From positions 19,080 through 67,102 of the forward strand of contig CAYHZA010000005.1 of assembly GCA_964361095.1 (NCBI GenBank): a stretch of 48,023 nucleotides of DNA, in the 5' to 3' direction. Position numbers and translations under genes: made by a program. How positions within the stretch are numbered: position 1 is the first letter of the stretch; each line of letters begins with the position of its first letter. Positions 31,454 to 47,801 of this stretch are shown here, one piece after another. The notes below the pieces were generated by a model. That model did not search any database and had not been told where the DNA came from. It was given only the letters and a program-made list of their open reading frames with translations. The stretch comes from an uncultured Candidatus Saccharibacteria bacterium. Lineage in GTDB: Bacteria; Patescibacteriota; Minisyncoccia; UBA6257; 2-01-FULL-56-20.

Positions 31454-31951
31454 ATGACCGAAAGAACTTTAATTTTATTGAAACCCGACGCGCTTGAGCG
31501 CGGTATTACGGGTGAGATTATGACCAGATTCGAACGAGTCGGGGCAAAGATTATTGGGCTCAAACTTCTTGTTTCTGAAAAAGACACCGCGGGCGAGCAT
31601 TACACCGACGATCTCGCGAAAAGGCGCGGAGAGAAAGTTCGCGAGCTTATGATCTCAATGCTTACTTCGGGTCCCATTATCGCTCTCGCTCTTCAGGGAG
31701 TCGAAATTGTTGATGTTGTTCGAAAAATGGTTGGCGCGACGGAACCGAAGAGTGCTTTGCCGGGAACGATCCGCGGTGATTATGCCCACGTTTCTTTCAA
31801 GCACGCTGACGAGCATGGCATTGGAGTTTTTAATTTGATCCATGCCTCCGGCAGCAAAGAAGAAGCAGAAGCTGAGATCAAAATATGGTTCAAGCCCGAG
31901 GAGTTGATCTCTCACGCGCCCCTCTATACCAAATTTACGATTAAGGAATAA
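31454..31951 (+). CDS. ndk: Nucleoside diphosphate kinase
   Basis: ERTLILLKPDA, PGTIRGD, NLIHAS. Confidence 0.95.
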   Translation: MTERTLILLKPDALERGITGEIMTRFERVGAKIIGLKLLVSEKDTAGEHYTDDLAKRRGEKVRELMISMLTSGPIIALALQGVEIVDVVRKMVGATEPKSALPGTIRGDYAHVSFKHADEHGIGVFNLIHASGSKEEAEAEIKIWFKPEELISHAPLYTKFTIKE

Positions 31952-31961
31952 TTACTCCTGC

Positions 31962-32687
31962 TTACGGAGTTTGTTTCTGAAAAGCTTTTACGATCGGCTC
32001 CATTTCGCCGTCCATTATTTTCTCTATATTGCCCCACTTTTTTCCGATGCGGTGATCGGTGATTCTGTCTTGAGGGAAATTATACGTTCTTATTTTTTCC
32101 GAACGGTCGTTCGTGCCTATCTGTTCGCGTCGCGTGGCGCCTCGTTCCGCCGCCGCGCCTTTGATGTTCGCCTCGTAAAGTTTCGCGCGCAAGACATCCA
32201 TCGCTTTTTCGCGGTTCGAATGCTGTGAGCGTTCGGATCGCGATCCAACGACGATGCCCGTCGGCTTGTGGAGAATGCGCACCGCGGTTTCAACTTTGTT
32301 CACGTTCTGCCCGCCGGGACCTCCGGCGCGCGAAAAAGTAACCTCAAGATCCCGATCGTTGATTTGCACTTCTTTGGCTTCAATTTCGGGCATGATGGCA
32401 ACGGAAGCCGTTGACGTATGTACTCTGCCGGCTTTTTCCGTCTTCGGAATGCGCTGTACGCGATGGACTCCCGATTCGTTTTTAAGAGTATCAAACACCC
32501 CTTCTCCCGCTATTTCCGCGACGAGCGTTTTGTAGCCGTCGAGCGTTGTTTGGTTAGAGTCGAGGATCGAAAATCCCCAGCCGCGTTTTCCGGCATATCG
32601 CTGATACATGCGCGCGAGATCTCCCGCGAAAATCGCGGCTTCGTCGCCACCCGCTCCCGCCCTTATTTCCAAGATGACTTTATTCAT
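31962..32687 (-). CDS. prfA: Peptide chain release factor 1-like protein lacking N-terminal domain 1
   Basis: [22 protein letters not shown] (PxT), [26 protein letters not shown]. Confidence 0.85.
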
Positions 32688-36409: not shown

Positions 36410-37915
36410 ATGGAACAATTCAAGTATTCAGCGGAACAAATTCTAAACTTCATTCGCACCAAGAAGGATGCGTTTTGGAGTCGCGAACGTGAAGCACGAC
36501 CGCTTAAATTGTTTCATGAAGCCGCTCGCCGCGTGCCGGCGTATAAGGATTTTTTAAAGAAAAACAAAGTAAATCCGGCAAAGATTAAAACGTTCAAGGA
36601 TTTCCAATTCGTTCCGCCGATTAGTAAGAAAAATTATCTGCGGCAGTATCCTTTGGAAAAACTGGTATGGGACGGAACGCTCAAAAAGCCCTTGGTTTTT
36701 ACTTCTACCTCGGGCTCCACGGGTGAGCCCTTCTATTTTCCGAGAAGCGAAAAATTGGACTGGGAGTATTCTATTTTAGCGGAGCTGTTTCTGGGAAATT
36801 CTTCTCTTAAAAAAACCGGACCGACACTGGTTATCGTCGGGCTGGGAATGGGTGCGTGGATTGGAGGGCTTATTACATATAAAGCGTTTGAAATCGCAAG
36901 CGGGCGTGGAAATTTTCCGATTTCTATTATTACCCCCGGAATTAATAAAGGTGAAATATTTCATGCCTTGAGGCAGTTGTCTCCGCATTACCAGCAGACA
37001 ATTTTAATCGGGTACCCTCCGTTTATTAAAGACATTATCGATGAAGCTGTTAGCGAGGAAAAAATTAATTTAAAAAAACTGAATTTAAGGATTGTAACCG
37101 CCGCTGAAGCATTTACCGAAAAATTCCGGGATTATTTAATCAATAAGACAGGGATTAAAAGTCCGTACTTAGATACATTGAACATTTATGGCACTGCCGA
37201 TATCGGTGCAATGGCATGGGAAACACCCTCTGCCATCCTTATTCGTCGGCTTGCGCTTAAAGATCAAAAAATATTCCGCGAAATATTTTCACCCATTTCA
37301 AAAACTCCAACACTTGCTCAATACAATTCATTTTTTATCACTTTCGAGGCGCCAAATGGGGAGATTCTTCTGAGCGGCAATAACACCATTCCTTTGGTGC
37401 GCTATGCGATAGGGGATCATGGTGGAGTTTTTGATTTTGGAGACGTTATCCAGAAATTAAGCAAGCATGGAGTTGATATTAAGCAAGAAATCAAAAAAGC
37501 TGGGATTGTGCGGGGCGTATATGAATTGCCCTATGTGTATGTGTATGAGCGCGCCGATTTTTCTACCAAACTATACGGCGCGATAATCTATCCGGAGCAT
37601 ATTCGAGAAGGACTCAGTCATCCATCGATTGAAAACATGATGACTGGGAAGTTTACAATGCTTACGCAGTTCGATAAACATCACAACGAATATTTAGAGA
37701 TTCACTTTGAGCTAAGGCCGAAAAATAAGCCTTCCCATAAATTGAGCAAAATACTGGAGGACATCGTTGTCGAAAGCTTACTACAGCATAATGCCGAATA
37801 TAGGAACAACTACAGTTCTATGCCGCATCGAGTCCGCCCACGGATTATTTTGTGGAATTACGAGCATCCGCTTCATTTTAAAAAAGGTATCAAGCAAAAA
37901 TGGGTTAAAAAATAA
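36410..37915 (+). CDS. Phenylacetate-CoA ligase/CoF390 synthetase-like adenylating enzyme
   Basis: RVPAY, STSGSTGEP, GYPPF, YGTAD, PLVRYAIGD. Confidence 0.88.
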   Translation: MEQFKYSAEQILNFIRTKKDAFWSREREARPLKLFHEAARRVPAYKDFLKKNKVNPAKIKTFKDFQFVPPISKKNYLRQYPLEKLVWDGTLKKPLVFTSTSGSTGEPFYFPRSEKLDWEYSILAELFLGNSSLKKTGPTLVIVGLGMGAWIGGLITYKAFEIASGRGNFPISIITPGINKGEIFHALRQLSPHYQQTILIGYPPFIKDIIDEAVSEEKINLKKLNLRIVTAAEAFTEKFRDYLINKTGIKSPYLDTLNIYGTADIGAMAWETPSAILIRRLALKDQKIFREIFSPISKTPTLAQYNSFFITFEAPNGEILLSGNNTIPLVRYAIGDHGGVFDFGDVIQKLSKHGVDIKQEIKKAGIVRGVYELPYVYVYERADFSTKLYGAIIYPEHIREGLSHPSIENMMTGKFTMLTQFDKHHNEYLEIHFELRPKNKPSHKLSKILEDIVVESLLQHNAEYRNNYSSMPHRVRPRIILWNYEHPLHFKKGIKQKWVKK

Positions 37916-37921
37916 ACCGAT

Positions 37922-39130
37922 ATGAAAAATGCAATTGACAAAGTATTAGAAAGAATAATCGCGCAGAAATCAAAAGTTGTAGCGGAATCGAAGCCACTCA
38001 TTTTGGACTTAAGTAAAACAAAAGACAAGCATACGATATCGAAGTTATTATCTAGCAGAAAGGTTCAACAAGTTATTGATGATTATAAGGAACAGTTGCA
38101 TGAGCTTTTTGCCGTTAAAAATCCAACATTGGTTTACGCTCAAAATTTCGCCGATAAGTTTGCCGAATATTTTAGTAATTTAGAGAAGCAAAAGCCGCTG
38201 TCGGAATACGGTCGTTGGGTTTATTTCCCGTGGCTTGGCGTAGTAACTCATATTTTAGAAGATAAGGATTTCCAATTAGTGAGAACGGCCCGGAATAAAA
38301 ATCTTATTACCAAAGAAGAGCAAGAAAGGTTTTACAATGCCGTAATCGGCATAGGCGGATTAAGCGTAGGCAATAGCGTCGCAATGGCGATTGTTTTACA
38401 AGGCGGAGGAAGGCATATTCGGCTTGCGGATTTTGATCGTCTTGCGCTTTCGAATACGAATAGAGTTAATGCCGGTATCCAAAATCTGGGACTTTTGAAG
38501 GTTGAAATAACGGCACGTCAGATATACACCTTGAATCCTTATGCGAAAGTTGAACTTTTTACGGAAGGATTAACCACAAAAAACATAAGAAAATTTTTTG
38601 TCGGTCCGCCCAAGTTGGATATTGTCGTGGATGAATTGGATAATATCGCGATTAAATTTCTTATTCGAGAAGAGGCAAAGCGCCATCGTTTAGCAGTTGT
38701 TATGGCTGCTGATAATGGAGATAATGCGGTGGTCGACATTGAGAGATACGATAAAAATCCGAAGCAGAAGTTTTTTCATGGGCGGCTGGGTAATGTAAAT
38801 TATAAGGGATTAACAGGTTTAGATAAGTTTGGAATCGGAAAAACTATCACAAAACATATTGGTCCGGAGAACGTAACCGAGCGGATGAAAGAGTCGCTTT
38901 TGGAAATGGGGAAAACAATTGTTTCATGGCCGCAACTTGGGGGAGCCGCGCTACTTAATGGTTCGGCGGTTGCCTATTGCGTCCGCAAGATTCTCAATGG
39001 ACAGCAGATTGAAAGCAATCGTGCGATTATCTCTTTGGACGAGCAGTTGCTACCGACGTATCATTCGTCCATCGAAAAAAAGAAACGCCTGAAGGCGGTT
39101 AACACATTCAAGAAAGTTTTTGGGTTATAG
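37922..39130 (+). CDS. ThiF family adenylyltransferase (Rv1355c/MoeY N-terminal-like)
   Basis: RWVYFPW, RTARN, IGGLSVG, LADFDRLALSNTNR, VVDELD, SWPQLG. Confidence 0.85.
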   Translation: MKNAIDKVLERIIAQKSKVVAESKPLILDLSKTKDKHTISKLLSSRKVQQVIDDYKEQLHELFAVKNPTLVYAQNFADKFAEYFSNLEKQKPLSEYGRWVYFPWLGVVTHILEDKDFQLVRTARNKNLITKEEQERFYNAVIGIGGLSVGNSVAMAIVLQGGGRHIRLADFDRLALSNTNRVNAGIQNLGLLKVEITARQIYTLNPYAKVELFTEGLTTKNIRKFFVGPPKLDIVVDELDNIAIKFLIREEAKRHRLAVVMAADNGDNAVVDIERYDKNPKQKFFHGRLGNVNYKGLTGLDKFGIGKTITKHIGPENVTERMKESLLEMGKTIVSWPQLGGAALLNGSAVAYCVRKILNGQQIESNRAIISLDEQLLPTYHSSIEKKKRLKAVNTFKKVFGL

Positions 39131-39333
39131 ATGAATCGAAATTATCGGCGCAAGTGGTTCTCAAGAAAGATTGCGTTTTTAAAGTTTGTAAGAAAGATGA
39201 TGAAACGATAATAGAAGCGTCGTGAGTGCTATTTGACGCTTTTATGACAGTCTAAGCTTTTTCTTCTTGGTTTTTTATTCTTTTTTGTATATAAAAATGC
39301 GACCTCGTAGTATAAGTATTACTCAGTCGCATT

Positions 39334-39834
39334 TTACTTCTTGTTTTCCTTTCGATTGCGCTCCTCGATCCGTTTTCTTGTTTCTTCGAGTGGTCGCACG
39401 TGCCATCGTGAACGTTCTTCGTCGGTTATCGAGGGGTCAACTTCATGAAGATGCCACAGTCCATCCAGAGTATCTCGTCTCATCTGCGTTCCATAAAGCT
39501 GTGGCTTTCCTTGAGACATAAGTGCTCGATCTTTTGCGGCTGCAGCAAGCCATAGCGGATCAACCTCATCCTTTTCTGGTCGATATCCCATTTCTGCGGC
39601 TTTTTTTGCGAGCTCGTGTGATTTTTCATAATGTTCCGTGGTTTTACCGTGGATGAGTATCAATGCAGCACGAAGATGGTCTGCGGGTGTGCGTATTGCC
39701 CTGGCATTAAGAAGATCCAGGATGCGCGTGAGGCGTTGTTCATCTCTTTGGGCAAAAAGTTGACTGTTCTTTTCGAAGAGTTTTTCGTGTCTGTCATGCT
39801 GGTCTTCGAGGTATAGTCTTTTAAGTTCGTCCAT
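39334..39834 (-). CDS. DUF6624-like hypothetical protein
   Basis: EDQHDR, AALILIHG, AAAKDR....GKPQLYGTQ. Confidence 0.7.
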   Translation of the reverse strand: MDELKRLYLEDQHDRHEKLFEKNSQLFAQRDEQRLTRILDLLNARAIRTPADHLRAALILIHGKTTEHYEKSHELAKKAAEMGYRPEKDEVDPLWLAAAAKDRALMSQGKPQLYGTQMRRDTLDGLWHLHEVDPSITDEERSRWHVRPLEETRKRIEERNRKENKK

Positions 39835-39992
39835 TATGTGCCTCGCTTGTCTTCAAGGGGTAGGTTGATGTTAATGAGCTTTGTTTCTGCTGTTGGTAGT
39901 TTGATGATTTTGTTGAAATTGTCAAGCTCTCGTAATGGTTCAATAGCTTCGAATCATTACGGGAGAATATATAGAAAATCAAAGTAATCAAA

Positions 39993-40028
39993 AGGGGGTT
40001 GAGTCTGTATCACGTAACTCAACCCCCT
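39993..40028 (-). terminator. Terminator of the ATP-grasp gene
   Basis: AGGGGGTTGAGT...ACTCAACCCCCT stem with a T-run on the minus strand. Confidence 0.7.
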
Positions 40029-40032
40029 GAGT

Positions 40033-41022
40033 TTATAGCGGAGGATTGGATAAAAGTTCTGCTATTGCACGGGAAATTGGCATTCCTGTTAGTTCTTCGA
40101 TCCAGCCCCACTGCCCACTGGGATTTATCTCGAGGAAGACATACTGACCTTCAGGAGTCAGAATCATGTCAATTGCCCCGAAGCTTAAGTCCCATGATTT
40201 CATCAGTTTCAAAAGAGCGTCTCGAACTTCATTTGGTAAATCGAATTGCTCGTGCCGGACGTTCCCAAAATCATATCGCCGCCAGTCGTCTTGAGTTCTT
40301 GTGCTATCCTGTGAATGTATCGCGCACGTAAAAACATTGTTGCCAACAATCGTAATACGCAGTTCAAGTTTCTTGGGGATGTATTCTTGCGCAAAGACAG
40401 GAGCGATTCGAATGCTCTCAAAATGCGTTCGTAGCTCATCCTCGGAGACTCGGTTAGTGTAGAGTGTGTAGATCTCGCCCGAGGCGGAGTCAACGAAAAG
40501 ATGTCCCTTGAGCATCTTAACCGCAATTGATCCTCCGCATGCGCGGCAAAATTCCAGAAGGTTTTTGGGGTCGTTGGTGATGATAGTTCTGGGAACAAGA
40601 AGACCATGGCGTGAGGCGCATTTCAACTGAAAAAACTTGTTATGCTCTAATAGTCGATTTGCGACGACAGGCTTATTCATCCAGAATGTCTCAAGGGTCG
40701 TATAGAGTGACCACAATGCAGCTGTGGATTCCTCTTTGACTAACTTGAAGTATCCTTCCGGAAGAACTGATAGGTTTTCGGGAGAGCGGGTTCCCCGATA
40801 CCAGCAGCTTTTTATCTCCATTAGAGAAATTATGGGGTTATCGGCAATCCTCAGCATGCCATCAAGGTTCTTGTCGCTAAGCTCTAGATTCACTTGCGAA
40901 TCGCGGGGAAACGTTTCCGTGTTGAACTTGAGATATTTTTGATCCATTTGCTCGAAGCACGCTATTACCGGGTTGACGCTAACATCGGGAGCGCTTGTTA
41001 AAATCAGAACTGCATCTTTCAC
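40033..41022 (-). CDS. ATP-grasp RiPP maturase (MvdC/MvdD graspetide synthetase-like)
   Basis: VLILT..D, FNTETFP, WMNKP, NKFFQL, VPRTIITND, QEYIPKKLELRITIVG, DWR, FGAIDMI, FLEINPSGQWGWIE; SD AAGGAGG. Confidence 0.92.
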   Translation of the reverse strand: MKDAVLILTSAPDVSVNPVIACFEQMDQKYLKFNTETFPRDSQVNLELSDKNLDGMLRIADNPIISLMEIKSCWYRGTRSPENLSVLPEGYFKLVKEESTAALWSLYTTLETFWMNKPVVANRLLEHNKFFQLKCASRHGLLVPRTIITNDPKNLLEFCRACGGSIAVKMLKGHLFVDSASGEIYTLYTNRVSEDELRTHFESIRIAPVFAQEYIPKKLELRITIVGNNVFTCAIHSQDSTRTQDDWRRYDFGNVRHEQFDLPNEVRDALLKLMKSWDLSFGAIDMILTPEGQYVFLEINPSGQWGWIEELTGMPISRAIAELLSNPPL

Positions 41023-41114
41023 CGAGGTTCCTCCTTCCGCTTAGTTGCTTATTGTGTTTTTAAGGTGCTGTGTCTAAAGTTAAGGTAAGCGCTATTCTAT
41101 ATATAAGTCAAGAT

Positions 41115-41873
41115 ATGGAGCAAAAAAAGTCCACGCAAGAAATTCCCCAAAGAACGAAGCAGCACCTCTTTAAGGTTCTTCAAGCTGCCGATGCAAAACG
41201 AAAATATCGTTGGGCAATTGATGTCTATGAGCACTATCGTAAAGTCTATTCCTTCGACGACGCGCTTGACTACAGGTTGGCGTTACTCTATGACCACTTG
41301 GTAATATTCAAAATAGAAAAACTATTAGATAAAACAAAAAAGCAGAAATTTTTAAAAAAATACCTTAAGAAAGCAGAGAACATTTATCGTGCAATAGTAA
41401 AAAGAAATCCAGATTACCACCTCGCATTCCACGGCTTGAGCCGTGTGTACCAAGCTCGCGCGCAATATCGAAAGGCAATCATGTACGCAAAAAGAGCATA
41501 TGCCCTTCTTAAAAAACTTCCAAAAAAGAGACGTGGTGTACTTGGTATAGGCAATGTGTTCTTATTGGCAGGCGACCACAAGAATGCCGAAAAATGGTTT
41601 AAAAAAGAATTGAACGATCTAGGTAAAAATCACCTGGGAGCGAATGCTAATGTAATGATGTTTTATCTTCAAACAAACAATCTTAAAAAAGGTTTGCCAT
41701 ACGCCCTCAAGACAGAAAAACTTCTTACAAGCGAACTTGCAAAGCCGATCTATCGAGGGGTCAATACAGGTTCAAGCAATAAAACGATCGGGTTGTTGAG
41801 AAAAAGGATTGATAAAATTAAGCAATTTAATTCTCACATGAAAAATAAACAGCCCACCGTTGGTGGGCTGTAG
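41115..41873 (+). CDS. TPR-repeat protein
   Basis: AENIYRAIVKRNPDYHLAFHGLSRVYQARAQYRKAIMYAKRA and IGNVFLLAGDHKNAEKWFKK TPR patterns. ATG at 41115 preferred over GTG at 41070. Confidence 0.8.
   Translation: MEQKKSTQEIPQRTKQHLFKVLQAADAKRKYRWAIDVYEHYRKVYSFDDALDYRLALLYDHLVIFKIEKLLDKTKKQKFLKKYLKKAENIYRAIVKRNPDYHLAFHGLSRVYQARAQYRKAIMYAKRAYALLKKLPKKRRGVLGIGNVFLLAGDHKNAEKWFKKELNDLGKNHLGANANVMMFYLQTNNLKKGLPYALKTEKLLTSELAKPIYRGVNTGSSNKTIGLLRKRIDKIKQFNSHMKNKQPTVGGL
41842..41871 (-). terminator. Terminator of precursor 1
   Basis: ACAGCCCACC-GTT-GGTGGGCTGT perfect stem with a T-rich tail on the minus strand, just past the precursor stop. Confidence 0.75.
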
Positions 41874-41886
41874 GAATACAGTTCCT

Positions 41887-42087
41887 TCAGTCGCTGCAGT
41901 CGTAGTCCAAGACGTCGTTGCCTCCTGTCGAGTTGATCTGGGTTGCAGTCGCCGAAGGCGATTCTTGGCCGACCCTTTGTATTCCCGGTTTTTCCAGGAA
42001 GTTTGCGATGAAGGGTTTCGGTCCGACGTGGTTGACTGAAAGCTCAATGAGAGCTTCTGGAGGAGCAGTTGTCATGGTTCGCATCAC
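41887..42087 (-). CDS. Graspetide (omega-ester peptide) precursor candidate
   Basis: SD GGAGGTG 6 nt before the GTG at 42087 (ATG follows at 42084). Leader KPFIANFLE resembles microviridin PFFARFL. Core SPSATATQINSTGGNDVLDYDCSD has Ser/Thr followed by Asp. Confidence 0.82.
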   Translation of the reverse strand: MMRTMTTAPPEALIELSVNHVGPKPFIANFLEKPGIQRVGQESPSATATQINSTGGNDVLDYDCSD

Positions 42088-42092
42088 TTTTT

Positions 42093-42166
42093 TCACCTCC
42101 TTTCTTTTGAATTTTTAAATTACTAACTAATTTCATAATGACAAGGTTTTTATGTTTTGTCAACTT
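42093..42166 (-). promoter_or_regulatory. 74-bp promoter+RBS cassette, copy 1
   Basis: TTGACA-17nt-CATTAT ... AAAGGAGGTGA; 70/74 identical to 44986-45059. Confidence 0.85.
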
Positions 42167-42205
42167 GCCATCTATTTCTGTAGCTTGATTCTGCTATAAT
42201 AAAAG

Positions 42206-42254
42206 TATGATTCCTCGCGAAGATATTCAGAAAATTCTTGAAGCGCAAGTATAG
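42206..42254 (+). pseudogene. Gene 5' stub MIPREDIQKILEA, copy 1
   Basis: Preceded by TGCTATAAT; 42206-42236 matches 46038-46068 at 29/31, both differences synonymous. Confidence 0.65.
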
Positions 42255-42337
42255 AAAAACGCTTGACAAATTTGCTTTAATGAGTTATTTTATGGGAAGT
42301 ATCTTGGTATAAATAAGGTCAAGAAAAGGAGAAACCG

Positions 42338-42478
42338 ATGCGGTGTCAACATGGTTCTCCGGAGGAATGCCGCTTCAGAAATTGCGAAGGGTCGCTCGCG
42401 GCCCCCGGTTCATGGAAAGATTTCTTCAAAAGACTTATTGAATTCCTCAAGTCTTATTTTAAAAGAATTAACTCATAG
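42338..42478 (+). CDS. Small 46-aa peptide (not in ORF track)
   Basis: AAGGAG SD and TTGACA near 42264. MRCQHGSPEECRFRNCEGSLAAPGSWKDFFKRLIEFLKSYFKRINS. Confidence 0.5.
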   Translation: MRCQHGSPEECRFRNCEGSLAAPGSWKDFFKRLIEFLKSYFKRINS

Positions 42479-42550
42479 CTGGACGACAAGTCCAGCTATT
42501 GTTTTTAAAATATAACATCCGCTTGCTATATATGTTCAAAACTTTCGAGC

Positions 42551-42588
42551 AAAAAAATGAGCTAAACGAATTTCTGTTTAGCTCATTT
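42551..42588 (-). terminator. Terminator of the radical SAM gene
   Basis: AAATGAGCTAAAC...GTTTAGCTCATTT 13-bp stem with a T-run on the minus strand. Confidence 0.8.
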
Positions 42589-42606
42589 GAATTCTGACAG
42601 GTTGGT

Positions 42607-43887
42607 TTAGGTTGGCGTTTCCTCAAGAGAACCCCATTCTCCAAGATATGGACTGTAGAGGCACTCTGTGGGTTTCGCCACGAAGCTTCCCGACTTATCC
42701 ATGTTTTTTGCTTTTGGCCTGCAATCGAAGCAGGCGTATCGGTACTCGCAATCCCTGCAAATTTCGATATGGTCCTTAGAGAGTTGTCTGATTCTTTGCG
42801 CACGTCCTTTCTTAAGGATGTTTTCCAGGCTTGTTTCCAGTACGTTGCCGTAGGACATATCTCGTTCCATAATACAGGGATATACATCGCCACTCGGTCC
42901 TACGCACACCTTCTTTGAAAAACAGTTGTGTCCATAGTGCCGTTGAGTAAAAATCTCTTTCGTGCACTTTGGAAAAACTGGTCTAGTGAGATACGTGGAG
43001 GAGATTAGCTTGGTAGGTACGAGATCATTGTTGCAACCCCGGCCACTGGGTCTTACCAGATCTACCCCTACGCGTGGAATCCCCAATTCCGTGAGAAAAC
43101 ATTTCGTCTCCTCAAGGTTGTCTTGATTGTGAATCATACCAACAATTCCGGCTCGCACCTCTAGCCCAGCGGCAAGCATCCTTTTGACGTTGCTTACCGT
43201 GTGAGCGTGACTATTTTTCCCGAGGGTGATTCGTTCATGAATTGCCGGATCGTCACCGTAGAAAGAAACTGCCACGTTGACTTTGTGCTCTTTCAATGCA
43301 TCCAGCATTCTGTCGGTGAGGATAGTTGCGTTTGTAAAAACCTCTACAAACGCGAAAGATCGCTTCCTCGCATATTTGATCAATCGGATGAGATTTTCAC
43401 CCAGTATCAGTGGTTCTCCACCGATAAATTGAAGTTTTTTACACCCGAGATCGGAGACCTGATCAATGACCGAAAGCCAATCTTGGATTGACATCCGATC
43501 TTTTCCGATCAGCGAGGGATTACTTCCCGCATAGCAGTGCACACACTTCAGATTACATCCGGCGGTGAGCTCAAGCCAAATGAAGCTCAGGAGTTTCTGG
43601 TCCTTATTGATGTCGACTTTCTGGATTTTTTCTCCTGCTTCGAGATATCTCCCTAACTTGGACTCAGCCAGTTTGTTCAAATACTCAATCGACTCACCCC
43701 TGTTCAGTTCAGGGTTTTCTGTGAATATGGCCTTGGGAGACAACCCTTGTTCACAGAGTTCCAGAAGTTTTCTGGCCTCCTGATCGATGGAGTATACGTT
43801 ACCGTCCTCCAAATTATAGATCGCGGCACGTTTAGCTCCGGTAACCAAAAACACATTTTCAGCAAGTCCGAACTTTCTGCTTTCCAT
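42607..43887 (-). CDS. Radical SAM/SPASM peptide maturase with N-terminal RRE-like domain
   Basis: CNLKCVHC, IGGEPL, FTNAT; SPASM C...GDVYPC...CRDCEYRYACFDCR...C; about 90-aa PqqD-like N-terminus; SD AAGGAG. Confidence 0.92.
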   Translation of the reverse strand: MESRKFGLAENVFLVTGAKRAAIYNLEDGNVYSIDQEARKLLELCEQGLSPKAIFTENPELNRGESIEYLNKLAESKLGRYLEAGEKIQKVDINKDQKLLSFIWLELTAGCNLKCVHCYAGSNPSLIGKDRMSIQDWLSVIDQVSDLGCKKLQFIGGEPLILGENLIRLIKYARKRSFAFVEVFTNATILTDRMLDALKEHKVNVAVSFYGDDPAIHERITLGKNSHAHTVSNVKRMLAAGLEVRAGIVGMIHNQDNLEETKCFLTELGIPRVGVDLVRPSGRGCNNDLVPTKLISSTYLTRPVFPKCTKEIFTQRHYGHNCFSKKVCVGPSGDVYPCIMERDMSYGNVLETSLENILKKGRAQRIRQLSKDHIEICRDCEYRYACFDCRPKAKNMDKSGSFVAKPTECLYSPYLGEWGSLEETPT

Positions 43888-43978
43888 ACACGCTCCTTAA
43901 TTAAGTCAAAGGTCTTGCTGTATAATCCTTTATAAGTGCTGTATTGTCAAGAAAGTAGTCATGATATAAACTATTAAT

Positions 43979-44788
43979 ATGATTCGTCTTTCATTTATAG
44001 TTGATAAAAGTTTTATATTGCAACACATACTGAAAAGTTTTTCGGACTGGCGTAGTGTCAAAGTTTTAAAACATAAACTCTGGAAACGAAATCAAAAACT
44101 TTACTATATCCTTGCGCAAAATATTGAACCTTTGACGTTCGCTGATAACTTTTCAGAGGAACTTAAAAGGGCCGTTAAGGATTCTCTATCTGACCTTTCT
44201 TTTATTTATAAGAACCCTTTGTTTAGAAAAATACTAAAAGAAACTGAGAAGTATAGATTATTTGTCAATGAGCAGTGGGAAAAGAATTATAATTTATCGC
44301 TGATGCATATGCGGGATATTACAAAGTTGCCGCTTGATACCGTGCAGTTAAATCTTGAGGTATATATTTCTCACCCGAAGCTATCCAGGGGCAGATCGTA
44401 TCCGGAACAGCGTGTCATCGCATGGGCTCATAGTGAGGATTGGAAGAACTATTCAACAGTATATCTTTGGCATGAAATTATGCATCACATTGCGTATAGC
44501 CGAAAAGGAAGCTCTCATCTTATGCATGCATTAATTGAATTAGCGTGCGATAACGAATTGCGGGTTAGACTTAATGGAAGAGGCGGATATTTCAGGGAGG
44601 GCGAATTCGATGTCGGTCATAACTATTTAGTGAAGTTAGAAAGAAAGATAACAGAAGAATGGAAAAAATATTTAAACGATCCCCGTACTAATGTTTATCA
44701 ATTAGAGAGAAAATTACGTTCCAAATTCTCAGAGGAGTTTTTAGTGTCGCGACAATCAGCGCTTAACGAGTGGGCTGAATGGCACTAA
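43979..44788 (+). CDS. HExxH motif protein (putative zinc metallopeptidase)
   Basis: VYLWHEIMHH with downstream HALIEL. Confidence 0.65.
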   Translation: MIRLSFIVDKSFILQHILKSFSDWRSVKVLKHKLWKRNQKLYYILAQNIEPLTFADNFSEELKRAVKDSLSDLSFIYKNPLFRKILKETEKYRLFVNEQWEKNYNLSLMHMRDITKLPLDTVQLNLEVYISHPKLSRGRSYPEQRVIAWAHSEDWKNYSTVYLWHEIMHHIAYSRKGSSHLMHALIELACDNELRVRLNGRGGYFREGEFDVGHNYLVKLERKITEEWKKYLNDPRTNVYQLERKLRSKFSEEFLVSRQSALNEWAEWH

Positions 44789-44817
44789 AAAATACGGCAT
44801 CCAAAGTGGATGCCGTA
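44787..44817 (-). terminator. Terminator of precursor 2
   Basis: TACGGCATCCA-CTT-TGGATGCCGTA-TTTTTT on the minus strand. Confidence 0.85.
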
Positions 44818-44836
44818 GCAGTTTTGCGAGTTTGAT

Positions 44837-44980
44837 CTATGACGGCATGCACGCCGGTTGGCAGTCGGGTCCGCACTGAGGAATGCATTCCGTGCTTTCG
44901 GGCGCAACTTGTTCTCCGTCTGGAGCGTTGTCACTCGACTGAAGTTTCTGGTTTCCCTGAGTGACCTTTGTAAGTTCCAA
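44837..44980 (-). CDS. Cys-rich RiPP precursor candidate, 47 aa (not in ORF track)
   Basis: SD GGAGGTG 6 nt before TTG. MELTKVTQGNQKLQSSDNAPDGEQVAPESTECIPQCGPDCQPACMPS. Own promoter and terminator. Confidence 0.82.
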   Translation of the reverse strand: MELTKVTQGNQKLQSSDNAPDGEQVAPESTECIPQCGPDCQPACMPS

Positions 44981-44985
44981 GTTTC

Positions 44986-45059
44986 TCACCTCCTTTCTTT
45001 TGAATTTGTAAATTACTAACTAGTTCCATAATGGCAAGGTTTTTATGTTTTGTCAACTT
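44986..45059 (-). promoter_or_regulatory. 74-bp promoter+RBS cassette, copy 2
   Basis: 70/74 identical to 42093-42166; TTGACA-17-CATTAT; AAAGGAGGTGA. Confidence 0.85.
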
Positions 45060-45062
45060 TTT

Positions 45063-45102
45063 ACCCGCCGAAGCCTTGGGCGAAGGAGTGGCGGAGGCGG
45101 GT
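45063..45102. repeat. REP-like palindrome
   Basis: ACCCGCC...GGCGGGT; the core CCGAAGCCTTGG(G)CGAAGGAG also occurs inverted at 29377-29405. Confidence 0.7.
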
Positions 45103-45165
45103 GCCGTCGGGGAGTAACTCACAGCCGTGGAAATCCTCCTTAATTTCTGGTATAATGTAAGTACC

Positions 45166-45405
45166 ATGGCAATTGATCAAAGGTTAAAGAAATACTTTTG
45201 GGATACGGATTTCAATGCCCTAGACAGAAAGAAGCACAAGCGTTATATCATTGAGCGTATTTTAGAGATGGGGGATGAGCCGGCGGCGGCGTGGATGAGG
45301 CAAACATTTTCCAAGGACGACATTATAAAGGTGCTCAATGCAACGAGAAATATATCGAAGCGGAGCATGCATTTTTGGCATCTCGTTCTCGACCGTTCTG
45401 TATGA
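45166..45405 (+). CDS. DUF6922-like putative antitoxin
   Basis: YFWDTD..LD..KH..YIIERILEMGD...FW; TGGTATAAT upstream. Confidence 0.8.
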   Translation: MAIDQRLKKYFWDTDFNALDRKKHKRYIIERILEMGDEPAAAWMRQTFSKDDIIKVLNATRNISKRSMHFWHLVLDRSV

Positions 45406-46025
45406 AAATACACGCTGAAGCGCTTCCAAAAGATACAGAGCGTCTTCTGCCTTCGCTTGCAGAGATGCCCTCTGTCAAAAACTTTTATCTTGCGGGTGGC
45501 ACCGCGCTCGCTTTGCAGATCGGGCATAGAATATCCGGCGATTTGGATTTCTTTTCGGAAGAAGCTTTTGACGAATCCTTGTTGATTCAAAAACTGTCTG
45601 GGTCCTATGAATTTCAGATAGAGAAGAAGTCAGAACAAACCGTACTTAGTATAATTAGCGGCGTCAAAGTATCTTTCCTCGGGTATCCCTATCCGCTCTT
45701 GGTTCCCGCTAATGAGGCACTCGGTGTACGCGTTGCGGATATTCGCGATATCGCCTGTATGAAAATTGACGCGGCGTCAAACCGCGGCACCAAGCGCGAT
45801 TTTATTGATCTGTACTGTATTATCCGCGCCGCGTTTTCCCTTTCGGACATCCTGCAGTTTTTTGAAAAGAAATATTCTATACTGCACTACAACATGATGC
45901 ACATCAAAAAGAGTTTGGTTTATTTTGAAGACGCCGAAGGCGACCCCATGCCGCAGATGCTTCAGCCGGTTTCATGGGAGGAGGTAAAATCATTCCTGGA
46001 ACGCGAGGCGTTGCGTCTTTCATAG
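45402..46025 (+). CDS. AbiEii/AbiGii family nucleotidyltransferase toxin
   Basis: FYLAGGTALALQIGHRISGDLDFF, MKIDA..RGTKRDFIDLY, SLVYFEDAE; ATGA coupling. Confidence 0.9.
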   Translation: MKIHAEALPKDTERLLPSLAEMPSVKNFYLAGGTALALQIGHRISGDLDFFSEEAFDESLLIQKLSGSYEFQIEKKSEQTVLSIISGVKVSFLGYPYPLLVPANEALGVRVADIRDIACMKIDAASNRGTKRDFIDLYCIIRAAFSLSDILQFFEKKYSILHYNMMHIKKSLVYFEDAEGDPMPQMLQPVSWEEVKSFLEREALRLS

Positions 46026-46820: not shown

Positions 46821-46958
46821 GTCGTGAGAGATTTATAACCGTAAATTTATAAAATATCAAGTTGACGAATGTGGTAAAGTTAAGTATGTTGGGGGTAGCT
46901 ACCGAATGATTATTTGGCTCTAAATTCGATTGAAAACAGAAAATGGGGGGTTTATGAT

Positions 46959-47801
46959 ATGGTCGTCAACGATGATTTTGTAGTGATCCTGATTAAGCTT
47001 GATGCGCTGGAACGAGGGATAGAGTCAGAGATCCTCGAAGGCCTTGAAGGAGAAGGATTGAGCGTCAGCGAAGTCGGCACGATTCAATTCGACCTCGAAT
47101 TCGTAAAAAAATTTTATCAGTGGGCGGAGGTTAAGCATCTCAAAGAGATGGAGAAATATATGTGCGTGACGCCTTTGCCGGTTTTGATCGCGAAAGGCAT
47201 CAATGCCATCGGCAAAGCGATGTTCGTCAAGGAACAGTTGCGTGCCAAATACTCCAACAACCCACTGAAGAATCTTTTCCACTGTTCAAGTTCGCGAGAA
47301 GACGCACGACGGGAGTATGATTTGGTAATGGGAAGATATACGCCCGGAGAAGCAAAACAAGGAAGAACGCCCAATCAGGTTGAGGCCATCGTTTTCAAGG
47401 TACTTGAGAGCGGTGAGGTGCTTTTCCTGATGCTCAAGCGGATTCCGAATCGAGGTGGTTTTTGGCAGCCAGTAACAGGAAATGTAGAAAGAGGGGAATC
47501 CTTCGAAGCCGCAGCACTGCGCGAGGTTCGAGAGGAACTCGGAATCGAACGGGTGCTTGAGCTTATCGATACGGGTTACTCGTATAAATTCACTGACAAT
47601 AATCTCGATCAGTTCGAACGGGTGTTCGGCGTAAGGGTTCTGGATGGTACGCCAGTCAAGCTCTCTTCGGAACACACGGAATATCAATGGGTTTCGAAAG
47701 ATGACGCGCTGAACACTTACTTGAAGTATCCTGGGAATAAAGAAGGGCTAAGGCGGTTGGATGCGAAGGTCGCCGAGGCCGGAAAGCGAGGGATGCAGTG
47801 A
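46959..47801 (+). CDS. NDK-like domain fused to a NudB-like NUDIX hydrolase
   Basis: ILIKLDALERG and NLFHCS (NDK-like); GFWQPVTGNVERGESFEAAALREVREELG Nudix box. The ORF track start is TTG at 46914. Confidence 0.8.
   Translation: MVVNDDFVVILIKLDALERGIESEILEGLEGEGLSVSEVGTIQFDLEFVKKFYQWAEVKHLKEMEKYMCVTPLPVLIAKGINAIGKAMFVKEQLRAKYSNNPLKNLFHCSSSREDARREYDLVMGRYTPGEAKQGRTPNQVEAIVFKVLESGEVLFLMLKRIPNRGGFWQPVTGNVERGESFEAAALREVREELGIERVLELIDTGYSYKFTDNNLDQFERVFGVRVLDGTPVKLSSEHTEYQWVSKDDALNTYLKYPGNKEGLRRLDAKVAEAGKRGMQ

Follow-up and report, generated by a model that had tools for sequence, protein, structure and literature searches.

A predicted graspetide precursor and its neighbouring ATP-grasp ligase in a groundwater bacterium of the candidate phyla radiation

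Introduction

Bacteria of the candidate phyla radiation (CPR) have nearly no biosynthetic capacity. The stretch of DNA analysed here, 48,023 nucleotides of contig CAYHZA010000005.1 (hereafter the window; G000:C5:19080-67102), belongs to the 822,488-bp, 98.7% complete genome (G000) of a CPR (Saccharibacteria-like) bacterium, and about 6 kb of this 822-kb genome appear to be devoted to two modified-peptide modules. One of these contains pep1, a short gene on the minus strand (41887..42087) whose product carries a leader resembling that of the microviridins. This raises the question of whether pep1 encodes the ribosomal precursor of a graspetide, that is, an omega-ester macrocyclic peptide that is ribosomally synthesised and modified after translation (a RiPP), and which of the enzymes encoded nearby would modify it. 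The evidence from the peptide, the adjacent ligase and their relatives makes it highly probable that pep1 is a graspetide precursor from a CPR bacterium, and the modified peptides are candidate mediators of the relationship between the epibiont and its host. The window DNA is present in groundwater metagenomes from two studies, and contigs of the second study (X4 record 5) match the pep1 region (41068-42388) with 0 differences, which indicates presence only.

The gene pep1 and its expression signals

The longest open reading frame (ORF) listed for pep1 starts at GTG 42096, which falls inside a Shine-Dalgarno (SD) sequence, GGAGG (42100-42096), and the start of the gene was therefore placed at GTG 42087 or ATG 42084, giving 66 or 65 codons plus the stop. 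The spacing from the SD to GTG 42087 is 8 nt. Read from the minus strand up to the stop codon, the translation is VMRTMTTAPPEALIELSVNHVGPKPFIANFLEKPGIQRVGQESPSATATQINSTGGNDVLDYDCSD, and residues are numbered here from ATG 42084 (65-aa form). It confirms what the earlier note had read in this gene, namely KPFIANFLE followed by Ser/Thr donors and four Asp residues, with one Cys and no Lys. The leader motif KPFIANFLE occupies residues 23-31 (42018-41992) and the putative core extends from S42 to D65 (41961-41890). This tail contains four Asp, a single Cys (C63, 41898-41896), no Lys and no Arg, and its candidate donors are Thr46, 48 and 53 and Ser42, 44, 52 and 64, with Asp57, 60, 62 and 65 as candidate acceptors.

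Upstream of the gene a promoter and 5' untranslated region (5'UTR) block (copy 1, 42089..42166, minus strand) carries TTGACA-17-CATTAT with an extended -10 (42163-42135) as well as the SD, and downstream an intrinsic terminator (41849..41871, minus strand), consisting of a 10-bp stem with 7 GC pairs and a T run, overlaps the 3' end of the convergent ORF of a tetratricopeptide repeat (TPR) protein. With a sigma-70 promoter, an SD and a terminator of its own, pep1 thus appears to be a self-contained transcription unit. An Rfam hit to RF02844 on the terminator, obtained for 39000-45400 at permissive thresholds, was rejected, as it was the sole sub-threshold match and scored 28.8 against 49 bits.

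Since short motifs can arise by chance, all six-frame ORFs of 40-110 aa in the 822-kb genome (n=4,632) served as a control. The loose pattern P-h-h-x(1,2)-h occurred in 574 of them, the loose pattern combined with a Ser/Thr- and acid-rich, Lys/Arg-free tail in two, and the strict leader pattern of the family described below, PF-h-x-x-F-h-E, in one, which was pep1. Pfam and NCBIfam contained no family matching pep1, and a single-sequence search among 5.8 billion proteins returned nothing but pep1 itself.

The ATP-grasp ligase

A gene for an ATP-grasp graspetide synthetase of 329 aa (40033..41022, minus strand) lies 0.87 kb from pep1. Its product matches the MvdD pre-ATP-grasp domain PF21068 with 45.3 bits against a cut-off of 27 and RimK with 28.6 bits, and this MvdD-type neighbour upholds the initial assignment of pep1 as a graspetide precursor. 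Alignments of the ligase with graspetide synthetases of solved structure cover its whole length; the best is 5ig9 (171 bits), followed by 7m4s and 5ig8 (156 bits each) and 7mgv (CdnC, 133 bits); we take 5ig9 to be MdnC and 5ig8 to be MdnB. Among 13 related ligases 34 alignment columns are invariant, including the E298-x-N300 motif. Against NCBIfam the scores were 233.9 bits for MvdD, 233.8 for MvdC, 227.4 for SAV_5884 and 138.8 for GRASP_w_spasm, all under the respective cut-offs, and ranking the families by best E-value across the 13 relatives gave the order SAV_5884, MvdD, MvdC and GRASP_w_spasm.

A search at E <= 1e-5 detected related ligases in 9 of 61 relatives, one at E <= 1e-40 detected them in 24 of 401 genomes of the class, and the best match outside the CPR in the search of genome contigs was 40% identical. 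The closest ligase (L039, genome G069) shares 54% identity with that of the window. In a FastTree phylogeny of 49 ligases, rooted at the midpoint, with SH-like supports and with the partial matches L006, L010, L015, L028, L036-L038 and L058 omitted beforehand, the ligase of the window pairs with L039 as its sister (support 0.93), and the pair belongs to a group that includes L003 and L011 (0.94), itself part of one that includes L004 and L040 (0.83). All ligases of this clade are from CPR bacteria and all are linked to a TPR gene except L011, which is located at a contig end where its neighbours are not visible.

The pep1 family and its core

Small ORFs located beside related ligases encode peptides with a P-F/L-x-h-x-F-h-E leader, a Thr/Ser cluster and then Asp residues. 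In an alignment of 13 sequences (A1) P24 is invariant and E31 nearly so, and the consensus reads PFxLxFAE ... TxTGxxxDxDxxD. When 5.8 billion proteins were searched with a profile made from this alignment, 22 peptides were retrieved; a set of 1.84 billion proteins gave 32 representatives at E <= 0.001. The peptides found are short, come from CPR lineages where a source is named, and include a large subfamily of the form PFILNFLE...TTSGTWxDIDxxD.

The peptide encoded beside L039 has 61 aa and ends in TTSGNDVLDYD, the last eight residues of which, GNDVLDYD, are identical in pep1. It stops at DYD and is without the C63-S64-D65 of pep1, which thus appear to form a lineage-specific extension. T48, S52 and T53 as donors and D57, D60 and D62 as acceptors are common to both peptides, so that up to three rings are possible. 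The pep1 core fits the published signature TxxxTx(6-10)Dx(1-4)D (see below) as T48-QIN-S52-x7-D60-Y-D62, with Ser replacing the second Thr, and the L039 peptide fits it exactly (T-TLY-T-x7-D-Y-D). Judged from the sequences compared, the type of leader and core co-varies with ligase phylogeny, the TPR-linked ligase clade tracking the core type.

A sulfotransferase gene adjoins the closest ligase in G069 (2897-3817 of L039, minus strand; Sulfotransfer_3 47.9 bits, Sulfotransfer_1 43.8 bits), where the peptide ends in DVLDYD, a motif whose Tyr is flanked by acidic residues. The search for a homologue of it in the genome of the window gave none (best E 3.9), and Tyr sulfation of the DYD sequence is therefore not proposed for pep1.

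Proposed maturation of pep1

In the maturation that we propose, residues P24-F-I-A-N-F-L-E31 of the leader would serve as the Phhx(1,2)h recognition motif and dock on the ligase encoded at 40033-41022, which would phosphorylate the side chains of core Asp residues with ATP. Ser/Thr hydroxyls would then attack the activated Asp residues and form lactone rings. Since the core contains no Lys, all links would be esters, in line with the ester-only macrocycle proposed in the earlier note. As many as three rings may form, possibly nested around a T53-G-G-N-D57 turn, and the TPR and DUF6624-like proteins described below would probably act as partner or scaffold of the ligase.

Some of the results weigh against this reading. 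The ligase stays below every NCBIfam equivalog cut-off (233.8 bits against 425 for MvdC and 233.9 against 475 for MvdD), and thus the substrate rules of the characterised enzymes are not transferable to it. Moreover, D57 and D60 fall into invariant Asp columns when pep1 is aligned by MAFFT with the PFILNFLE subfamily, whereas a manual reading selects D60, D62 and D65; since the two core alignments differ, the set of acceptors and the ring pattern are ambiguous. Finally, a second ligase paralogue encoded in the same genome may be the actual modifier of pep1 or a further one, as discussed below.

Candidate partner proteins of the ligase

Between pep1 and the ligase gene, convergent with the former and divergent from the latter, lies a gene on the plus strand (41070..41873) for a TPR-repeat protein of 267 aa as listed (Pfam TPR_12, 30.9 bits), the true start of which is probably further downstream. 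Its AlphaFold model (predicted local distance difference test score 87.9) shows helices throughout, arranged as a solenoid, and contains no enzyme domain; Foldseek matched it best with designed TPRs and with TPR domains that bind peptides, for instance the one in O-GlcNAc transferase. Homologues of 50, 39, 33 and 25% identity adjoin related ligases. The convergent/divergent order of peptide, TPR and ligase genes is the same in the window, L039, L003, L004 and L040; in L005, L012 and L041 the TPR gene is located 3' of the ligase gene on the same strand, with an overlap or gap of 2-51 nt.

Downstream of the ligase gene a protein of 166 aa is encoded (39334..39834, minus strand), preceded by a promoter-like TTGACA of its own. 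We regard it as a distant DUF6624-like protein: it scores 17.3 bits with Pfam DUF6624, under the cut-off of 27, gives a weak local BLASTP match of 28 bits with the clear DUF6624 protein of L056, and has an Atlas structure match to a DUF6624 cluster (TM 0.71). Clear DUF6624 proteins adjoin related ligases. Within 1.5 kb of the ligase a TPR homologue is encoded at 10 of 31 loci, a DUF6624 protein at 12 and a Tiki-like protein at four, and the window has both a TPR and a DUF6624-like gene. Drawing on the analogy of the systems in Carter et al. (2026; PMC13097080) that depend on a partner, we propose that the TPR and DUF6624-like proteins are probably partner or scaffold proteins of the ligase.

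Among the Atlas neighbours of the DUF6624-like protein there are also Bacteroidota clusters of about 290-300 aa whose members mostly bear TPRs, the alignment spanning the whole 166-aa query. These structural matches hint at DUF6624-like and TPR accessory proteins working together.

Comparison with known graspetides

Two ATP-grasp branches confined to CPR genomes have been described in silico, in a study available to us in part (Biol Direct 2022, PMC8939145). According to that part, the CPR precursors have a Phhx(1,2)h leader, a motif common to many graspetide groups, and cores that mostly follow TxxxTx(6-10)Dx(1-4)D, and the genes encoding them have TPR proteins, 'cluster 23' proteins, SPASM enzymes and zincin peptidases as neighbours. 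The pep1 locus agrees with these branches (1/2) in its CPR genome, Phhx(1,2)h leader, core signature and TPR, SPASM and zincin neighbours, and differs from them in the Ser at the position of the second Thr of the signature. Our guess is that the 'cluster 23' protein corresponds to DUF6624. In four supplementary files of this study by Makarova that were open to searching, neither the peptide nor any of the motifs looked for occurs (0 occurrences).

A supplement to Carter et al. (2026; PMC13097080), likewise accessible in part, contains the exact 65-aa pep1 peptide as a RODEO-predicted graspetide of group 14 from a 'Patescibacteria group bacterium'. The novelty that the earlier note attached to the core was thus overstated: the peptide is already catalogued and its class has been known in silico since 2022, the core fitting the CPR signature. 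In the literature searched, no experimentally characterised CPR or group 14 graspetide was found. The group number itself says little about the pep1 core, since the group 14 rows in the accessible part of the supplement are mostly Bacteroidota peptides with MKK...GG-type leaders and without the PFxxxF motif. Group 14 is further stated there to co-occur always with a SPASM protein. By NCBIfam the window ligase has less in common with GRASP_w_spasm than with MvdD, MvdC and SAV_5884. Among the peptides of relatives of the window ligase, the same source places the L004 type in group 13 and the L056 and L052 types in group 42; according to it, DUF6624 is frequent in groups 18, 20, 23 and 42, and groups 27 and 42 contain many candidate phyla.

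The microviridins (group 1) resemble pep1 in the leader, PFIANFL(E) compared with PFFARFL(E), which are equal at five of seven positions; Phhx(1,2)h, as the broader motif, is not defining for group 1. The ligases 5ig9 and 5ig8 align end to end with the window ligase, as noted above, and a microviridin-like mechanism, in which Ser/Thr-to-Asp/Glu esters form in an ATP-dependent manner, is predicted for pep1. On the other hand, pep1 lacks the TxKxPSD core, with no Lys and no PSD in its last 28 residues, so that no lactam is expected, and its ligase, at 234 bits, is far from the microviridin equivalog cut-offs of 475 and 425 and has a TPR partner gene at its locus. The description of a microviridin-like leader joined to a non-microviridin core therefore holds. 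Plesiocin and thuringinin, graspetides of the hairpin type, are ester-only with a ring within a ring and have an N-terminal cluster of Thr/Ser and a C-terminal cluster of acids (PMC13097080, accessible part). The T53-G-G-N-D57 turn of pep1 with its flanking donors and acceptors would permit such nesting, but the leader and the core spacing are different, the pep1 acceptors are Asp only, and PsnB (7drm) matches the window ligase weakly (28 bits). A further likeness exists with rosaritide and MirC, where, as far as the accessible part of the source describes it, a protein with no catalytic function shows strict linkage to the ligase gene (Carter et al., 2026; PMC13097080); that partner is a protein resembling peptidyl-prolyl isomerases, whereas the partner candidate at the pep1 locus is a TPR solenoid.

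A second ligase in the same genome

The second ATP-grasp ligase gene (L011; G000:C5:69310-70326, minus strand) is located at the contig end, about 2.2 kb past the right end of the window. Its product is 50% identical to the window ligase and falls into the same clade, and no second precursor or second TPR gene was found in the assembled genome. It is conceivable that pep1 is modified by both paralogues, each closing different rings in the manner of the two microviridin ligases, or by the second ligase alone, and the pep1 core with its four Asp and at least five Ser/Thr offers several sites. We nevertheless consider a two-ligase pathway unlikely. The paralogue is encoded at a distance of about 9 kb, and since it is found at a contig end its own precursor may be merely unassembled; the closest relative, G069, gave a single ligase match; and pep1 contains no Lys for a lactam step.

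The radical SAM module and the suggested role of C63

If a single ligase thus remains the preferred modifier of pep1, the question remains whether the peptide is also a substrate of the radical S-adenosylmethionine (rSAM) enzyme encoded close to it. Along the minus strand from 45059, the locus consists of a second promoter/5'UTR copy, a second precursor gene (pep2), a gene for an HExxH protein (plus strand), the rSAM/SPASM gene, promoter copy 1, pep1, the TPR gene (plus strand), the ligase gene and the DUF6624-like gene. The pep1 and pep2 halves share one geometry: each has a middle gene that converges with the peptide gene and diverges from the enzyme gene.

The gene for the rSAM/SPASM peptide maturase of 426 aa (42607..43887, minus strand; Radical_SAM 80.9 bits, SPASM 43.2 bits) shares its strand with pep1, lies 0.5 kb upstream of it and possesses a separate promoter (43950-43922) and a separate terminator (42588-42555). 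The adjacent gene (43979..44788, plus strand), which converges with pep2 and diverges from the rSAM gene, encodes a protein of 269 aa with an HExxH motif, a putative zincin-type peptidase that had no match in Pfam or NCBIfam and for which Peptidase_M78, DUF5700 and Peptidase_MA_2 are Atlas leads only. The pep2 gene (44837..44980, minus strand) encodes 47 aa from TTG 44980, which is spaced 8 nt from its SD as in pep1, and has a Cys/Pro-rich tail, ECIPQCGPDCQPACMPS; it is followed by an intrinsic terminator (44793..44817, minus strand) with an 11-bp stem and a T run. Homologues of the rSAM enzyme occur in 8 of 401 genomes of the class. At the loci outside the genome studied here an HExxH protein (239-266 aa) adjoins in five of seven cases and a Cys-rich peptide (47-88 aa as listed by the ORF scan) in four of seven, and in an alignment of these peptides (A4) the columns of C35, C39, P41, C43 and P45 of pep2 are invariant. 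By these sequence criteria pep2 is likely to be the substrate of the rSAM/SPASM enzyme, and the rSAM, HExxH and Cys-peptide genes appear to constitute a separable RiPP module of their own.

Copy 2 of the promoter/5'UTR block (44982..45059, minus strand; TTGACA-17-CATTAT, 45056-45028) precedes pep2. The two 78-nt copies are 94% identical and are the only two in the whole genome, and co-regulation of pep1 and pep2 through this duplicated promoter is proposed, such that rSAM/SPASM enzyme, HExxH protein and pep2 would represent a second RiPP module switched together with pep1. An 86-nt promoter/UTR query was rejected as an element common to relatives, as its matches in 25 of 101 genomes covered the 3' AT-rich and SD part only (positions ~35-86). 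This AT-rich SD part is a generic ribosome-binding region, which explains the high-depth short matches at 42095-42138. As a side observation, both this segment and 39919-39956 (TTGACA region) gave many high-depth partial matches in contigs of the second metagenome study, with divergent sequence to either side; these segments represent expression signals of a generic kind that more abundant community members also have.

The proximity of the rSAM gene and the promoter common to pep1 and pep2 would suit a hybrid 'grasp-with-SPASM' product, in which the ligase cross-links pep1 and the rSAM/SPASM enzyme modifies it as well, a thioether from C63 being one example, and this is close to the cross-talk between the lone Cys and the rSAM enzyme that the earlier note had suggested. 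In G375 a related ligase is directly followed by a distant rSAM/SPASM enzyme (22% identical) and a 51-aa Cys-rich ORF with a leader-like motif, PLFGAE. Several observations nevertheless make a hybrid product from pep1 quite improbable. C63 is absent from the closest homologue, which shares GNDVLDYD and ends at DYD before the Cys; a minority of the pep1 family has a Cys at all, at varying positions of the core, with Ala, Gly or Ser elsewhere. The rSAM enzyme has a precursor family of its own with invariant Cys/Pro columns, an HExxH partner, and a separate promoter and terminator. Of the 24 genomes with a ligase, only G000, G146 and G222 also encode an rSAM homologue, which in G146 and G222 is on a different contig from the ligase, and the four closest ligase genomes outside that of the window (G069, G050, G057 and G375) gave no rSAM match at E <= 1e-30. 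The grasp-with-spasm models (TIGR04192/TIGR04193) score under their cut-offs for both enzymes (ligase 138.8 against 230 bits; rSAM enzyme 110.3 against 175 bits with TIGR04193, over residues 312-419 only), and in place of one precursor bearing the targets of both enzymes there are two separate precursors, with the Cys not conserved in pep1 and conserved in pep2. The separate rSAM module together with the L039 peptide lacking the Cys thus speaks against a conserved role of C63, and neither the special role of this residue nor its cross-talk with the rSAM enzyme found support. The same applies to a native thioester at C63, which is not indicated; the thioesters in the accessible part of Carter et al. 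(2026; PMC13097080) are non-native products only.

The G375 locus stands as an observation in its own right: ligase and rSAM/SPASM genes on the same strand are accompanied by the 51-aa PLFGAE ORF and an HExxH (Peptidase_MA-like) gene (L040 2-1219, minus strand, and L077 2296-3288), and by this arrangement grasp-plus-SPASM hybrids may exist in the ligase clade.

That pep1 is no RiPP precursor at all, being a small acidic protein or chance ORF with a fortuitous motif, would agree with its lack of a Pfam or NCBIfam family and with the single-sequence search that returned pep1 alone, but is hardly credible in view of its promoter, SD and terminator, the strict leader motif that is unique in the genome and stands beside a ligase, and the homologous peptides that adjoin homologous ligases in many CPR genomes.

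Implications for the locus as a whole

Four observations are new as far as the texts consulted go: two different precursors are coupled by a duplicated promoter, the two modules are separable, the Cys is not conserved, and the TPR-linked ligase clade tracks the core type. The accessible part of PMC8939145 mentions neither the duplicated promoter nor a separate Cys-rich precursor. A first structure of a CPR graspetide would add its ring topology and test the need for the TPR and DUF6624 proteins. No exporter gene was in view in the neighbourhood of the pep1 locus. Going further, one could imagine a two-peptide island in which a tri-lactone graspetide of unsolved topology, made by a ligase needing TPR and DUF6624-like partners, and a Cys/Pro-rich rSAM peptide are co-switched by the duplicated promoter/5'UTR as a binary weapon against, or signal to, the host or rival epibionts, a scenario that we regard as rather doubtful as a whole.

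Neighbouring genes

Downstream, the peptide island is flanked by a gene for a DUF6922 protein (60.7 bits) that overlaps an AbiEii-family nucleotidyltransferase toxin gene (60.1 bits; together 45127-46025, plus strand), a type IV toxin-antitoxin-like pair; the upstream flank consists of housekeeping genes and a PaaK-like/ThiF pair. This pair (36410-39130, plus strand) encodes a PaaK/F390-synthetase-like enzyme of 501 aa and a ThiF-like protein of 402 aa that resembles the N-terminal half of Rv1355c. Its products were considered as tailoring enzymes of pep1, and the adjacency of the two genes in G069 as well (57% and 39% identity) was counted in favour. They were rejected in this role, as the pair was not found in five other ligase genomes; of the 401 class genomes 36 have the PaaK-like gene, which among the 24 ligase genomes is restricted to G000 and G069. 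The PaaK-like and ThiF genes are thus probably an independent, uncharacterised module. The G069 counterpart (L078 2831-6529) has a separate nitroreductase. Near the second ligase, an 84-aa ORF (G000:C5:67348-67602, plus strand) has last 36 residues that are 56% identical to the C-terminus of the window ThiF-like protein (residues 367-402) and an N-terminal part that looks nitroreductase-like by eye, which suggests a partial duplication.

Two further genes of the window deserve mention. A nucleoside-diphosphate-kinase domain (49 bits) and a NUDIX domain (64 bits) are joined in one protein of 295 aa (46914-47801, plus strand), and a canonical nucleoside-diphosphate kinase is encoded at 31454-31951. 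A release-factor ORF of 241 aa (31962-32687, minus strand) matches the PCRF profile only from position 100 on, its N-terminal part apparently being in another frame or missing, and it may represent a programmed prfB frameshift or a truncation.

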